Positions 4,198 to 9,506 are shown, counted from the stretch's first letter. The stretch is DNA of 64,000 nt from an uncultured Cytophagia bacterium (GCA_964647995.1 CAZYNP010000015.1:6108-70107); one strand, 5' to 3'. The notes: generated by a model from the letters alone, not told the origin. Made by a program: numbers and translations.

Positions 4198-4998
4198 ATG
4201 TTTCCTGTTTTATTCAAGATCGGAGCATTTGAACTGCGGAGCTACGGTCTGGCACTGGCGGTCAGTGTGGCGCTGGGTATCTGGATTTCGTTGAAGCGAG
4301 CGCCCCGCTTTGGCGTGAAGCCAGAGACCGTCATGGATCTGGCGGTGATCATTATGCTGGCGGCAATTATCGGCAGCCGTTTCTGGTATGTGATCTATCA
4401 TGTCGATGAATTTCGGGGCCATTGGCTCGATACCATCAATCCGTTTCAGGGGGGAACCATCGGCATCGCTGGGCTATCCATGGTCGGGGGCGTGGTGCTG
4501 GCGATCATTTCAGCGTTGATTTATTCGTTGATCAAAAAAGTCAATTTTGTGAAGCTGGGCGATACCATTGCCCCGGTTTTTTTGCTCGGCGAAGGCATTG
4601 TGCGAGTTGGCGGCTGTTTCTTGAACGGTTGCTGTTTCGGGCGGCCTACCGATAGCCCGCTGGGTATTGTATTTCCACCCGAAGGGGTGGCGGGTTCCGT
4701 TTTTCCCCACACCCATCTCTGGCCCGCCCAGCTATTTGCCTCGGCATTGGGATTTTTCGGCTTTGCCCTGGTGCTATGGCTGGATCGGAAGGCTAAATTC
4801 TCGGGATTTACCTTCTGGCTGGTATTTGGTTATTATGCCATCGACCGATTCATCGTGGATCAATTTCGTTACTATGAGCAGCCACAGGTGCTGGGCACTT
4901 TGGGGCCGGTTACGTTCAATGCCAATCATCTACTGCTGCTGGGATTGTTTGGAGTGAGTGTTTATTTTCTTATTCGCGGCTGGCGCCGATCACGTTGA
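4198..4998 (+). CDS. lgt: Prolipoprotein diacylglyceryl transferase
   Basis: 266 aa, polytopic membrane protein. The N-terminus MFPVLFKIGAFELRSYGLALAVSVALG and the RVGGCFLNGCCFGRPTD region parallel E. coli Lgt (IGPVALHWYGL..., GRLGNFINGELWGR). Confidence 0.85.
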   Translation: MFPVLFKIGAFELRSYGLALAVSVALGIWISLKRAPRFGVKPETVMDLAVIIMLAAIIGSRFWYVIYHVDEFRGHWLDTINPFQGGTIGIAGLSMVGGVVLAIISALIYSLIKKVNFVKLGDTIAPVFLLGEGIVRVGGCFLNGCCFGRPTDSPLGIVFPPEGVAGSVFPHTHLWPAQLFASALGFFGFALVLWLDRKAKFSGFTFWLVFGYYAIDRFIVDQFRYYEQPQVLGTLGPVTFNANHLLLLGLFGVSVYFLIRGWRRSR

Positions 4999-5322: not shown

Positions 5323-5351
5323 TTGACAATGAAATTTAAAATTAATATTAT
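5323..5351 (+). promoter_or_regulatory. Near-consensus sigma70-type promoter (TTGACA-N17-TATTAT) about 75 nt upstream of the repeat-protein gene
   Basis: TTGACA at 5323-5328, a 17-nt spacer, then TATTAT at 5346-5351. A strong SD (GGAGAGG) follows 6-12 nt before the ATG at 5425. Confidence 0.4.
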
Positions 5352-5424
5352 AAGCCTAAGGCCAAAGTCGTTCTGAAGTTCTCCGGTCTATGATTGGTAG
5401 AAATTTTCTCAATGGAGAGGATTT

Positions 5425-6321
5425 ATGATCAATACGCTCAGAATATATGATGAGTTGAAAGAGACCATGGAATCGAGCGCGGCCAGGAAGATTTCTGAAA
5501 TTATTACCTGGATCTATGAAGATCTTCAAAATACTGTTACTAAAAAAGAATTCAACGAACTAACGAGTGCCGTTAGGGAATTAGCGGCTGCCCAGAAGCA
5601 AACGGAATTGAAAGTTGAGGAGCTGGCAGTAGCGCAGGCGCGGACGGAGCAGCGGGTTGAGGAACTGGCAGCAGCACAGGCGCGGACGGAGCAGCGGGTT
5701 GAGGAACTGGCAGCAGCGCAGGCGCGGACGGAGCAAAAAGTTGAGGAGTTGGCAGCGGCGCAGGCGCGGACGGAGCAGCGGGTTGAGGAGCTGGCAGCAG
5801 CGCAAGCACGAACGGAACAAAAAGTTGAGGAGTTGGCAGCGGCGCAGGCACGAACGGAACAAAAAGTTGAACTGTTGGCTGATGCTCAACTTAAAACCGA
5901 AAAGCAACTTAAAAACCTGGCGCAACAGGTTGGCGCCTTGAGTGAAAAATTAGGCGGATCACTGGAAGATCTTTCTTACGATGTATTGCCAGCTTGCCTG
6001 GAAAAATATTACCAGATTGAAGTTGACGGCTTAGCCAGAGAATTTTTCCGGGTGAATGGAAAGGAAATCGAAGTCAATGTTTTCGGCAAGGGACTGGAAA
6101 AAACGACCGGGAAGAGATTGGTAATCATTGGAGAAGTCAAGACAAATATTACTCTGAAAGAAGTGAAAGATTTCATCCGAGTATTGAAGTTGCTCCAGAA
6201 ATCATTCGACGAGGAAATATTCCCATTGCTGTTTGGTTTTAGAATTCGATTGGATGCCAGAGAATTGGCAAAAGCAAATCAGATTCGGATGTTTGTTTCC
6301 TATGGCAAAGAGATAAAATAA
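5425..6321 (+). CDS. Coiled-coil tandem-repeat protein with a C-terminal PD-(D/E)XK-nuclease-like domain (uncharacterized)
   Basis: 298 aa. Residues ~60-160 are seven near-identical 14-aa units [13 protein letters not shown](R/K), i.e. two heptads per unit. The C-terminal ~130 aa show a D...(E)VK arrangement ([12 protein letters not shown] ... [10 protein letters not shown]) consistent with a restriction-endonuclease-like core. Confidence 0.7.
5611..5904 (+). repeat. Seven tandem 42-bp direct repeats (coding, in frame) inside the 5425-6321 gene
   Basis: The unit gttgagga(a/g)ctggcagcagcgcaggcgcggacggagcagcgg is repeated with only synonymous or conservative changes. The opposite-strand ORFs 5573-5851 and 5581-5925 are artefacts of this repeat. 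Confidence 0.9.
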
Positions 6322-6429
6322 CCAAAAGATCGACCGTGGAAAAAATCGATATTTGGTTAAATAGAAATTGAGCAATTTTAATAAGCGGTGAACAAGGCCG
6401 GCCAATTTTGTTATGTCAAATTGAAAGGC

Positions 6430-6645
6430 GTTTTATAACAGAACTGGATCCTATTCAATTGCTGCAGGGAAGACGGTGCAAATCCGTCACAGCCCCGCTA
6501 CTGTAAGGGGTTACGAAAGTCACAAATGAGGTGCTATCGCTAAAGGGATTGCGCTGCGATAGCAAGGTCACTGTCCGCCAATCAGCGGATGGGAAGGCGT
6601 GGCGAGTAGGTTTGAGCCCCAAGTCAGGACACCTGCGATATTTTG
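6430..6645 (+). ncRNA. Cobalamin (adenosylcobalamin/B12) riboswitch aptamer
   Basis: GCAGGGAAGACGGTGCAAATCCGTCACAGCCCCGCTACTGTAAGGGG fits the conserved cobalamin-riboswitch core (GGGAA..GGTG..AATCC....CCCGC.ACTGT). The downstream AAGTCAGGACACCTGCG resembles the conserved AGCCAGGA.ACCTGCC segment. It lies directly 5' of a B12/siderophore-type ABC importer operon. Confidence 0.85.
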
Positions 6646-6734
6646 TTGTCCTACAAATCGGCGCGAGAACGCTCGATTGGCTGGTAGGCGACCTTCGAGG
6701 GCGAGGTCAAGGACGCATTACATCATGGATTGAT

Positions 6735-6768
6735 CCCGACAACTGGAAGGTCGGGATTTTTTATTTTG
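6735..6768 (+). terminator. Rho-independent terminator, probably the riboswitch expression platform
   Basis: cccgac-aactggaag-gtcggg hairpin followed by attttttatttt, sited between the aptamer and the btuF-like start at 6792. Confidence 0.6.
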
Positions 6769-6791
6769 GATTGGATTTCCGTGGTTGAGGA

Positions 6792-7700
6792 ATGGTCATG
6801 CCCAAAAAGATATTTTTGATTTTGTTGTGTTCGATTATGTCATCGAGCAGGATAATGAATGCGGTTGGAGCAATGCCATCCCAATCGCCTCAGCGAATCG
6901 TTTCGTTGGCTCCGAATATTACCGAGATTCTGTTTGCGCTCCACCTGGATGAGTCGATTGTTGGCGTTACGGACTTTTGCAATTATCCACCGCCAGCGGC
7001 CACAAAAGTGAGAGTCGGGGGTTACCTGAATCTCAATCTGGAGATGGTGTTAGCACTACGGCCAACATTGGTGATCATGTTGAGCTATCAACAGGCATTG
7101 AAAGAAAAATTGGATGCGTTGCAAATTTCATCGCTCATGATTAAAAGTGACAGTATTGAAGACATTTTGGAAGCAATTGTTCGGATTGGTGCGGCAACAG
7201 ACCGGTTGGAGGAAGCGCAACAGCTTTCTCGAACCATCTCTCAGAAACTAAATTGGTATCAACACCACCTGGCGACGGTGCCACCGAAGACGGTGCTATT
7301 TATCATTGGGCGCAATCCTGGCACGTTAGAGGGTATCACCGCGGTGGGCGGTAAGTCTTTTCTGAATCAATTGATTGAATATGCTGGCGGGGAGAATATT
7401 TTTGCCAATATCAGTATGCTTTATCCCAAAGTTACCCAGGAGGAGATCGTCGCGCGAAATCCTATGATCATCATCGAGGCATCGCCATTTACCAATCCGA
7501 CCCCGGCGCAGTTAGAGCACCATCGCCAGGCCTGGCAGCAATTGTCGTCGCTGACGTGTGTTCAAAGCAAGCAGATTTTTTTCCTGGAACAGGACTATAC
7601 GCTGATTCCAGGGCCGCGCATTCTGCAGTTGCTGGAGCAATTGGTGCAAATTCTTCATCCAGATATCTATGAGAAAGTCAAATCGAACCATGAGCCATAA
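6792..7700 (+). CDS. ABC transporter periplasmic substrate-binding protein, BtuF/FecB-like (cobalamin/iron-siderophore family)
   Basis: 302 aa with a signal peptide. IVSLAPNITEILFAL...GVTDFCNYP is typical of the class III PBP (BtuF/FhuD) family. It lies downstream of the B12 riboswitch. Confidence 0.8.
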   Translation: MVMPKKIFLILLCSIMSSSRIMNAVGAMPSQSPQRIVSLAPNITEILFALHLDESIVGVTDFCNYPPPAATKVRVGGYLNLNLEMVLALRPTLVIMLSYQQALKEKLDALQISSLMIKSDSIEDILEAIVRIGAATDRLEEAQQLSRTISQKLNWYQHHLATVPPKTVLFIIGRNPGTLEGITAVGGKSFLNQLIEYAGGENIFANISMLYPKVTQEEIVARNPMIIIEASPFTNPTPAQLEHHRQAWQQLSSLTCVQSKQIFFLEQDYTLIPGPRILQLLEQLVQILHPDIYEKVKSNHEP

Positions 7701-8475
7701 ACAAGAAATCATCGCCTTTGAGCAGGTGTCATTTCGCTATGCTCAGGTGGATGTATTGAAGGAAATTTCCTTCAGTGTGCTGGCTGGCGAGTTTATTGGT
7801 ATTCTCGGCCCCAATGGCGCGGGAAAGTCGACGCTATTGAAGCTTTGCAATCGGATTTTAAAACCCACGGCCGGTCGCATCTGGCTGGAAGGTGGCGATA
7901 TTGCGCGATGCTCCCAGCGGCAGATTGCGCAGCGGGTCGCCATGGTCGCACAAGAAAATTATGTACCATTCAATTATTCGACCATTGAAGTTGTGCTAAC
8001 CGCGAGGCATCCTTTTATTCCACCGCTGGGTTTTGAAACCAAAAACGACTGGGCGATCGTGAAACGCGCGATTGAGATGCTGGAGATTGATGATCTATCG
8101 CAGCGACCGTTTGCTACTCTTAGCGGCGGCGAGAAGCAGCGTGCGCTGGTAGCAACTGCCCTGGCACAAACTCCCAAGCTGCTATTGTTGGACGAGCCGA
8201 CGTCATCGCTGGATTTGAAGCATCAGATGGATATTTACACACGGTTGAAAAAAATCCAGCAGACGGATGGGCTAACCATTCTGGCAGTGACCCACGATGT
8301 AAATCTTGCCGCGATGTTTTGCGATCGGCTGATTCTTCTGAAGCACGGCACTGTGGTGGACTATGGCAAACCGGGTGATCTGGTGACAGGGGCGAAGATG
8401 GATGCTCTTTACAATATTGCTGTTAGTGTGCTGCCGCATCCCATACACGGCACTCCCCTGGTCTTTCCCAATTGA
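7669..8475 (+). CDS. ABC transporter ATP-binding protein (BtuD/FecE-like)
   Basis: Walker A GPNGAGKST, signature LSGGEKQR and Walker B LLLDEPTSSLD. The 5' end overlaps the preceding gene; the true start may be the Met at ~7690. Confidence 0.9.
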   Translation: MRKSNRTMSHKQEIIAFEQVSFRYAQVDVLKEISFSVLAGEFIGILGPNGAGKSTLLKLCNRILKPTAGRIWLEGGDIARCSQRQIAQRVAMVAQENYVPFNYSTIEVVLTARHPFIPPLGFETKNDWAIVKRAIEMLEIDDLSQRPFATLSGGEKQRALVATALAQTPKLLLLDEPTSSLDLKHQMDIYTRLKKIQQTDGLTILAVTHDVNLAAMFCDRLILLKHGTVVDYGKPGDLVTGAKMDALYNIAVSVLPHPIHGTPLVFPN

Positions 8476-8492
8476 GAAAGTGAGCACTGGCT

Positions 8493-9506
8493 GTGGTAAC
8501 TCGCAAAACCCTCTTTGTCCGATTGGCGTTGCTGCTGCTGTTATTATTAGCCGTCATCGGATTCGCACCATTGATCGGCTCAACCGCGCTGGATTTCAGT
8601 CAGGTGTTTGCCTGGCCTATTCGGTTGACCGAAAATCGTGACGCCCAGATTTTTTTCTCATTGCGCTTGCCGAGAGTATTGATGGCGGGACTTACCGGCG
8701 CAACACTGGCCGCTGCCGGCTTGGTGTTCCAGGCGTTGCTGAGGAATCCTCTCGCCGATCCATTCACCCTGGGGATTGCCAGCGGTGCCGCATTGGGCGC
8801 AGTTCTGGCCTTGAAATTGGGTTGGGTGTTCCAGGTGCTGGGCTTTTCAGCCGTCTCGTTGCTGGCTCTCGCCGGGGCGTTGCTTTCTATTCTCATCAAT
8901 CTCTTGTTTGTCAGTTTGCGAAAGCCGCGTTTTTCGACCTACGCCATGATTCTGGCGGGCGTGAGCATTAGCTTTTTCTTCTCGTCACTCATCCTTTTTA
9001 TACACTATCTTGCGGATTTTACTGAGACGCAGCAAATGGTGCGCTGGATCATGGGCGGAGTTGACATTGTCAATTACCGTGTCGTCGTTCGCTTGTTACC
9101 ATTCTGCCTGGTTGGTTTTATGGTGCTAATCTATTTTAGCCGGCACTTGAATCTCATCAGCCTGGGAGAAGAGGCGGCAATTGCTCGAGGGATTCAGATA
9201 ACTCGGGTGAAAATGACGATTTTTGGTGTGGCATCGGTTTTGACGGGGCTGGTAGTGGCACATAGTGGTCCAATTGGCTTTGTCGGCCTGATGGTGCCGC
9301 ATATTTTGCGATTGCTGGTCGGCTCGGACCATCGGTTGCTGGTGCCAGCATCGCTGCTGTTTGGTGCAACCTTTTTGATCGGTTGCGATACCATCGCCCG
9401 CGTTATTATTGCGCCAGCCGAAATTCCAGTAGGCATTGTGACTGCGCTTTGTGGTGGCCCGTTTTTCCTCTGGCTTATTTTGAGGCGAAAAGCACTATTT
9501 AGTTGA
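8493..9506 (+). CDS. ABC transporter permease, FecCD/BtuC family (GTG start)
   Basis: 337 aa, about 9 TM segments, the usual FecCD-family length and hydrophobic pattern. It completes the riboswitch-controlled importer. Confidence 0.85.
   Translation: MVTRKTLFVRLALLLLLLLAVIGFAPLIGSTALDFSQVFAWPIRLTENRDAQIFFSLRLPRVLMAGLTGATLAAAGLVFQALLRNPLADPFTLGIASGAALGAVLALKLGWVFQVLGFSAVSLLALAGALLSILINLLFVSLRKPRFSTYAMILAGVSISFFFSSLILFIHYLADFTETQQMVRWIMGGVDIVNYRVVVRLLPFCLVGFMVLIYFSRHLNLISLGEEAAIARGIQITRVKMTIFGVASVLTGLVVAHSGPIGFVGLMVPHILRLLVGSDHRLLVPASLLFGATFLIGCDTIARVIIAPAEIPVGIVTALCGGPFFLWLILRRKALFS

Follow-up and report, generated by a model that had tools for sequence, protein, structure and literature searches.

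A probable stand-alone coiled-coil PD-(D/E)XK nuclease of the DUF3782/DUF8196 family, with a heptad-stepped stalk, in a candidate-division KSB1 bacterium

We analysed a 64,000-nucleotide stretch of bacterial DNA (CAZYNP010000015.1:6108-70107, here called the window), which forms part of a 152,864-bp Joint Genome Institute (JGI) metagenome contig, and within it a gene for a 298-residue protein at positions 5425 to 6321. This protein joins a long coiled coil, much of it made of 14-residue repeats, to a C-terminal domain of the restriction-endonuclease fold, and we consider it with fair confidence to be a stand-alone coiled-coil PD-(D/E)XK nuclease of the DUF3782/DUF8196 family in a candidate-division KSB1 bacterium. 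In its predicted layout, a helical head is followed by a helix break at a VTKKEF motif, a 134-residue heptad helix, a flexible Gly-rich hinge and the restriction-endonuclease-fold domain.

The gene and its parts

The gene, its parts, its expression signals and its two neighbours are listed here in window coordinates, the parts of the protein having been delimited from AlphaFold2 (AF2) models, sequence patterns and family conservation.

5425..6321, plus strand: coding sequence, 298 residues and stop (open reading frame call and translation)
5425..5535, plus strand: N-terminal helical head, residues 1-37 (AF2 helices at 4-12 and 17-37)
5524..5553, plus strand: beta-layer-like nonad motif, L34-Q-N-T-V-T-K-K-E-F43 (pattern, AF2 and PDB alignment)
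5542..5943, plus strand: continuous heptad coiled-coil stalk, residues 40-173, about 20 nm (AF2 and register)
5572..5613, plus strand: degenerate 14-residue unit, residues 50-63 (in-frame cutting)
5614..5865, plus strand: six near-identical 14-residue (42-nt) units VEELA[A/V]AQARTEQ[R/K], residues 64-147 (Tandem Repeats Finder and in-frame cutting)
5866..5907, plus strand: degenerate 14-residue unit, residues 148-161 (in-frame cutting)
5932..5961, plus strand: Gly-rich hinge, residues 170-179 (AF2 and family conservation)
5962..6318, plus strand: predicted PD-(D/E)XK (restriction-endonuclease-like) domain, residues 180-298
5965..5970, plus strand: motif I, E181-D182, in helix alpha-1
6070..6078, plus strand: motif II, E216-V-N218, in strand beta-2
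6133..6141, plus strand: motif III (ExK), E237-V-K239, in strand beta-3
5323..5351, plus strand: sigma-70-like promoter, TTGACA (5323-5328), 17-nt spacer, TATTAT (5346-5351) (consensus scan)
5414..5421, plus strand: Shine-Dalgarno-like GGAGAGGA, 3 nt before the ATG (read from the sequence)
4198-4998: lgt (PF01790), upstream neighbour
6411-6654: cobalamin riboswitch (RF00174, 79 bits), downstream neighbour

A preliminary description of the window had proposed an open reading frame with its own promoter and Shine-Dalgarno sequence, standing alone between lgt and a B12 riboswitch, and on these points it was right. The promoter agrees with the scanned consensus at 11 of 12 positions, although this is a sigma-70-like consensus only and may not be that of KSB1 bacteria. 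The riboswitch heads an operon for a BtuF-like periplasmic binding protein, an ABC ATPase and a FecCD permease (window 6411-9506), and the gene has no shared partner at other loci.

The lgt-gene-btuF order recurs in a candidate-division KSB1 metagenome-assembled genome (MAG; L005), in which the orthologue again has 298 residues and a C-terminus 92% identical to that of the window protein, and also in a third assembly (L003), with an orthologue of 242 residues. Against the KSB1 orthologue L005, the ratio of non-synonymous to synonymous change (dN/dS) is 0.05 for the whole gene at a dS of ~1.14, with values of 0.06 for the head, 0.07 for the repeat array and 0.04 for the C-terminal domain. Because synteny is kept and dN/dS is low in all parts, the 298-residue gene is real, old at its locus and under purifying selection throughout, and its conserved position in three KSB1-type assemblies at this degree of divergence points to long vertical inheritance.

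Family membership and the nuclease domain

With the C-terminal 154 residues as query, we recovered 73 metagenomic relatives at 60-87% identity, and a profile of these reached homologues at 35-50% identity, several of which carry precomputed hits to PF26618 (DUF8196) and PF12644 (DUF3782). A profile search of 1.84 billion cluster representatives returned 737 clusters (50% identity) at E <= 1e-3, 365 of them with E <= 1e-10, with the domain at or near the C-terminus in 150/150 listed matches. Profile E-values of 1e-26 to 1e-39 connect the window protein with proteins that carry DUF3782 and DUF8196 hits, and the DUF3782 threshold is passed by two homologues, P0116 (26.1 bits) and P0094 (25.6 bits), both of which match the window-family profile at ~1e-28 to 1e-30. 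Judged by sequence, membership of DUF3782 holds through transitive homology rather than through the curated cut-off. Weighing against this assignment, the score of the window protein itself falls short of the DUF3782 gathering threshold (11.7 vs. 24.4 bits, E 0.31, residues 144-201), and it has no DUF8196 hit on record; the precomputed DUF8196 hits in its homologues, which include P0039 at 65% identity to the window protein, are mostly graded ‘weak’ or ‘faint’.

DUF3782 has been described as the collection of coiled-coil stalks found in a prokaryotic family of PD-(D/E)XK endonucleases (Hartmann et al., 2016, PMC4786415), so that the mention of DUF3782 in the preliminary description proved sound at the family level. 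DUF3782 (PF12644) and DUF8196 (PF26618) proteins share with the window protein a coiled-coil stalk, an (A)RQVGGLSE..GG.LED junction and a C-terminal restriction-endonuclease-fold domain; the window protein differs from the others in the Asn that its subfamily has at the D/N position of motif II, and in a stalk at the long end of the range. Its architecture is thus already catalogued, and by homology the protein is a further member of the DUF3782/DUF8196 family. The union of coiled coil and nuclease, at first described as unusual, is that of a family with hundreds of clusters. These are spread over Chloroflexota, Cyanobacteria, Spirochaetota, Acidobacteriota, KSB1 and other phyla, often in several copies per genome, and the names on representative clusters are ‘hypothetical protein’ or misleading automatic labels only. 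The window subfamily is tight (60-92% identity), is known from metagenomes only and includes MAGs labelled KSB1 and Deltaproteobacteria. Matches to SMC, Rad50, JetC, tape-measure proteins, flagellin and the like were rejected, as they reflect the composition and periodicity of the coiled coil and not homology.

An AF2 model of residues 155-298, built on a 43-sequence alignment, has a mean predicted local distance difference test score (pLDDT) of 87, with values >90 over the domain, and the full-length model has a mean of 89. In the modelled domain a helix leads into four strands, followed by a second helix, a single strand, a third helix and two final strands, and the whole takes the PD-(D/E)XK fold that the preliminary description had proposed. 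It covers about 119 residues (180-298), not the ~130 given there. The nearest fold matches are NucS/EndoMS and Hjc-like enzymes, and the top matches are active nucleases; the non-catalytic PD-(D/E)XK folds of RPB5 and TBP-interacting protein also appear among the matches. A BFVD structure search returned generic PD-(D/E)XK folds only, and a PDB sequence search with the window protein and two profiles gave no significant match.

To describe the putative active site, residue conservation was counted in 136 independent 50%-identity representatives of the family. In motif I, E181 is kept in 133/136 and D182 in 122/136; in motif II, E216 is kept in 125/136 (with D in 3 more), and at position 218 there are 75 N, 60 D and a single H (D or N in 135/136). 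The (E)xK motif that had been read in IIGEVK was confirmed as E237-x-K239, with E in all 136 representatives and K in 123 (R in 9 more). The Asp of EVDG, which had been put forward as the motif-II residue, is by contrast the variable D201 (D/E/G/A/N in homologues), the conserved acids being E181/D182 and E216. In the model, the acidic/lysine set (E181/D182, E216 with N218, and E237-x-K239) is complete and placed as in canonical PD-(D/E)XK enzymes. E216 is likely the motif-II carboxylate, a role it can fill because it precedes N218 by two residues and lies on the same face of the strand.

NucS/EndoMS (C-terminal domain, 2VLD and 5GKE) and AF1548 (1Y88) share this fold with the window protein at a sequence identity of only 15-19%, and Pfam, NCBIfam and PDB searches gave no sequence-level match to NucS. 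NucS dimerises via an N-terminal beta-barrel domain, whereas the N-terminus of the window protein is a long coiled coil, so that the protein falls outside NucS/EndoMS and has only the C-terminal fold in common with it.

A coiled coil followed by a nuclease domain was also described in silico for DUF1626 (Knizewski et al., 2007), a family whose function was listed as unknown in Steczkiewicz et al. (2012, PMC3424549). DUF1626/PDDEXK_10 (PF07788, COG5493), which is both archaeal and bacterial, has the topology of the window protein, and its nearest family is likewise DUF91/NucS. However, the motif-III Lys is often Thr in DUF1626, whereas K239 is conserved in the window family, and the crenarchaeal stalks contain nonad arrays, whereas the window stalk consists of pure heptads after a single N-terminal motif. 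PF07788 gave no HMMER match at E <= 10 to the window protein or its C-terminus, and is absent from the family lists of two sets of relatives, 105 and 43 in number.

The stalk, its head and its variable length

Tandem Repeats Finder reports a 42-nt tandem repeat at 5614-5858 (5.8 copies, score 336). The preliminary description had counted seven near-identical 14-residue repeats; the period was correct, but in-frame cutting gives six such units with one degenerate unit on each side. DNA identity among the units is 74-93%, and 9 of their 14 codons vary, 7 of these 9 by synonymous changes only. The unit is not peculiar to this protein: LAxAQx[RKQ]TE occurs in 106/143 family representatives (median 2 units, maximum 8, the number found in the window protein), and the family-wide consensus, anchored on [RKQ]TE, has L4 at 92%, A7 at 93%, Q8 at 95% and R10 at 84%. 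Between the KSB1 protein and a Caldilineaceae paralogue, 13 of the 14 unit residues are identical, and the nuclease domains of the same pair are ~36% identical. The stalk is built from a family-wide 14-residue unit (LAxAQxRTE).

In the full-length AF2 model, residues 40-173 form a single helix of 134 residues (pLDDT 93-98), and the heptad register runs without a break from F43 (position a) to L176, with V/Q alternating at a and L/T at d. The same phasing is found across the family, as the spacing between the motifs T[KR]x[DE]F and G..LED, which ranges from 47 to 152 residues (138 in the window protein), equals 5 modulo 7 in 100/106 family proteins and, among 27 independent representatives of 50% clusters, in 22, where chance would give ~4. 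A stalk made of a single alpha helix was set aside by inference, given that ~36% of the unit residues are charged, that i/i+4 pairs of opposite charge are few and that a V/L seam is clear. At the C-terminal end of the stalk, pLDDT falls below 50 at residues 170-177 and residues 174-179 are non-helical; this hinge carries the (A)RQVGGLSE..GG signature of the family, its most conserved linear motif.

At the other end, the head varies in sequence between subfamilies, and the full-length model breaks the helix at V38-T39, exactly at the VTKKEF motif. This stretch fits a nonad register, L34(a)Q(b)N(c)-T37V38T39-K(e)K(f)E(g)F43(a), that is, a-b-c-beta-beta-beta-e-f-g-a, and agrees with the pattern [aliphatic]-x-T-K-polar-[DE]. 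The beta-layer motif was defined on MPN010 (LKNFVTKTEF, 2BA2) and Tcar0761 (MATKDD, 5APZ) (Hartmann et al., 2016, PMC4786415), and for residues 24-77 of the window protein these two solved beta-layer trimers are the two best PDB sequence matches, aligned on the motif. The window protein resembles the beta-layer coiled coils MPN010/DUF16 and Tcar0761 in motif pattern and register, but has one motif at the junction of head and stalk where they have a repeated array.

Since beta-layers, which the VTKxEF motif matches, have so far been seen only in trimers, we infer that the heptad stalk holds the chains together in a parallel assembly, probably a trimer that would nucleate at the beta-layer. In such a trimer, three hinged nuclease domains would be gathered at the end of a rod that keeps them ~20 nm away from the head. 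Several observations count against this arrangement: the matches to 2BA2 and 5APZ are non-significant (E 0.17 and 0.22), bacterial members of the family are described as having no nonads in their stalks (PMC4786415), and polar Q(a)/T(d) layers with Ala at e/g are compatible with several oligomeric states, antiparallel ones included.

The length of the stalk varies widely. Differences between close relatives are multiples of 7 residues only, with a constant C-terminal part of 121-122 residues; the syntenic orthologues have 298, 298 and 242 residues, and groups with at least 95% identical C-termini include up to six stalk lengths. On a Caldilineaceae chromosome (OY282381.1, L032:4906-8097), four near-identical paralogues lie head to tail with 132-nt spacers between the genes, and their lengths of 253, 211, 239 and 225 residues correspond to 5, 2, 4 and 3 VEELAEAQQRTEHR units, which is almost their sole difference. 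A fifth copy elsewhere on that chromosome (L045:5332-6429) has 365 residues and about 13 units, and tandem pairs of family genes also occur in Thermosynechococcus MAGs. Orthologues, population variants and tandem paralogues thus differ in unit number, in every case by whole heptads, so that head, stalk register and nuclease domain stay in phase. This could come about by slippage or unequal recombination in the 42-nt (sometimes 21-nt) DNA repeats, with only in-phase products persisting.

Part of this variation could be an assembly artefact, since tandem repeats can be miscounted in short-read assemblies, but we would argue that much of it is real, because the unit sequences are divergent, one assembly is chromosome-level and the 298/298/242-residue trio is syntenic. 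That the repeat array as a whole is an artefact of assembly or annotation seems to us very remote. It is true that 42-nt tandem repeats over 252 nt are liable to collapse or expansion in short-read data, and that spurious open reading frames lie in other frames and strands of the array; yet the units differ at 7-26% of their nucleotides, mostly at synonymous sites, a 298-residue product appears in two independent assemblies with different unit sequences, array dN/dS is as low as given above, and the unit recurs across the family and in a complete chromosome-level assembly.

The spurious frames comprise three open reading frames of 92-114 residues inside the array (5573..5851, minus strand; 5581..5925, minus strand; 5657..5941, plus strand), which were rejected as by-products of the repeat because their translations are P/A/L- or R-rich, of low complexity and lack homologue support. 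The guanine-plus-cytosine (GC) content is bimodal inside the gene, at 39.7% in the head, 64.7% in the repeat array and 40.4% in the nuclease domain, compared with 49.9% for the window and 52.7% for lgt.

Genomic context and rival explanations

Neighbourhoods were compared in nine Pfam-annotated contexts and by clustering of neighbouring open reading frames over ~50 loci, and these gave no recurring partner gene, only lineage-limited synteny. The conservation of neighbourhood that the preliminary description had suggested checking is thus seen as lgt-gene-btuF synteny in the three KSB1-type assemblies, and does not extend to a partner across the family loci. Eight of the nine annotated contexts are housekeeping. 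The ninth (L058:6001-11474, JGI 3300071516, homologue P0103) holds a Uma2 (DUF820) PD-(D/E)XK gene, an IS3-type transposase, three TRL-domain genes and a HigB/HTH toxin-antitoxin pair. In Thermoflexales/Anaerolineae MAGs (L010, L018, L021, L022, L024), the family gene is syntenic with an MNT-like minimal nucleotidyltransferase (GSFARGD..DVDLL) and a dTDP-glucose-dehydratase-like gene, which recalls the association of DUF1626 with MNT/HEPN noted in archaea (PMC3710099).

A tblastn search of 72,556 plasmids with three family members was empty, as was one of 50,697 phages with the window protein. Searches of PADLOC-DB 2.0 gave no genuine defence match over a non-coiled-coil region, and PHROGs no genuine match, the hits in both being coiled-coil noise (JetC, DndD, PbeC and similar in PADLOC-DB). 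One PADLOC hit on the C-terminus, to Csn2 (E 2.4e-4), was discarded as spurious, as the window sequence alone among 43 members reproduces it, at E 0.009.

Around the gene itself, no second copy was found within the 64-kb window, and an intrinsic terminator scan found none between the gene and the riboswitch. An imperfect hairpin at the stop codon (window 6319-6359, UAACCAAAAGAUCGA...UCGAUAUUUGGUUA) has no U-tract and a non-significant folding energy (z = -1.8). The riboswitch core is the best-conserved intergenic stretch among the three syntenic assemblies (94-95% identity). Further upstream on the parent contig (window 1-4000, L001:1-6726) lie genes for two Por_Secre_tail proteins (sorted by the type IX secretion system), a GH31 glycosidase and an ARMT1-like (DUF89) protein, a set that fits a secretion system like that of the Fibrobacteres-Chlorobi-Bacteroidetes (FCB) group in the KSB1 bacterium.

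The preliminary description had raised a role in mobile elements or defence, which the searches of genomic contexts, plasmids, phages and PADLOC did not bear out. In its fuller form, this explanation takes the protein for a selfish, toxin-like or anti-phage nuclease, encoded by a single horizontally mobile gene, whose hypervariable stalk reflects an arms race. We think it unlikely, if still worth keeping in mind, as it would account for the multiple and sometimes tandem copies per genome, the patchy spread across phyla (shared with the related DUF1626, PMC3424549), the GC content of ~40% outside the repeats as against 50% in the window, the variable repeat number, the homologue next to Uma2, the transposase and the HigB/HTH pair, and the MNT-like neighbour in a subset of Thermoflexales/Anaerolineae. 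Set against these are the long vertical inheritance shown by synteny at dS ~1.1 and dN/dS 0.05, the housekeeping character of eight contexts in nine with no recurring immunity or partner gene, and the empty plasmid, phage, PADLOC and PHROG searches. The nearest folds, the strong promoter, inheritance by vertical descent and the missing immunity partner favour a structure- or lesion-specific DNA endonuclease over an indiscriminate toxin.

Somewhat less probable again, in our judgement, is a domain that is catalytically dead or repurposed for binding or sensing nucleic acids, in a protein that would serve chiefly as a coiled-coil structure or scaffold. Two findings weigh against an active nuclease here: the classical motif-II Asp position is Asn (N218) in the window subfamily, as it is in 75/136 representatives, and 10/43 members weakly match Pfam NA-iREase3, the ‘NACHT-associated inactive REase’ (restriction endonuclease; best E 0.0015). 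RPB5 and TBP-interacting protein, non-catalytic and yet among the fold matches, point the same way. But every NA-iREase3 match is below threshold, the best fold matches are active nucleases, and E216, on the same strand side as N218, can provide the carboxylate; moreover, E237 is invariant, and E181, E216 and K239 are kept at 90-98% in 136 divergent representatives, as expected of a working active site. We prefer to read the domains as active metal-dependent DNA endonucleases, whose target, given the resemblance to NucS/EndoMS and Hjc-like enzymes, is more likely to be a particular structure or lesion than a particular sequence.

The varying stalk invites a different idea, also raised in the preliminary description, that of a molecular ruler in which stalk length sets the distance from an anchoring or recognition point (the N-terminal head or a partner) to the cut, or between the two nuclease heads of an antiparallel dimer, with unit number tuning specificity. 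In Type I HsdS subunits, by analogy, the spacer repeats determine how far apart the half-sites lie. This idea draws on length changes that are strictly quantised in heptads and keep both ends in phase, on the 2/3/4/5-unit series of tandem paralogues on one chromosome, and on a unit better conserved across phyla than the nuclease domain (13/14 residues vs. ~36%, KSB1 against Caldilineaceae). The head, however, has only ~37 residues, varies between subfamilies and contains no recognisable binding domain, and heptad steps would follow trivially from in-frame gain and loss of 21-/42-nt repeats under selection for an intact coiled coil, so that we rate the ruler as doubtful. Equally doubtful is the picture of trimeric nucleases with adjustable stalks, in which unit number would be a rapidly evolving, selected parameter (for reach, cut distance or choice of partner), graded sets of paralogues would be deliberately kept and the unit would be a specific interaction module.

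Within the favoured reading as a stand-alone DUF3782/DUF8196 coiled-coil nuclease, there is no categorical novelty; what stands out are the fast-varying stalk that changes by whole heptads, the conserved LAxAQxRTE unit and the beta-layer-like motif. To the family, the window adds a vertically inherited and, by the look of its promoter, strongly expressed example with one of the longest stalks. Should the stalk prove not to be a trimer with a beta-layer, this would be an ordinary nuclease-like gene; should it be one, a rare structural element would be extended to a bacterial enzyme family.

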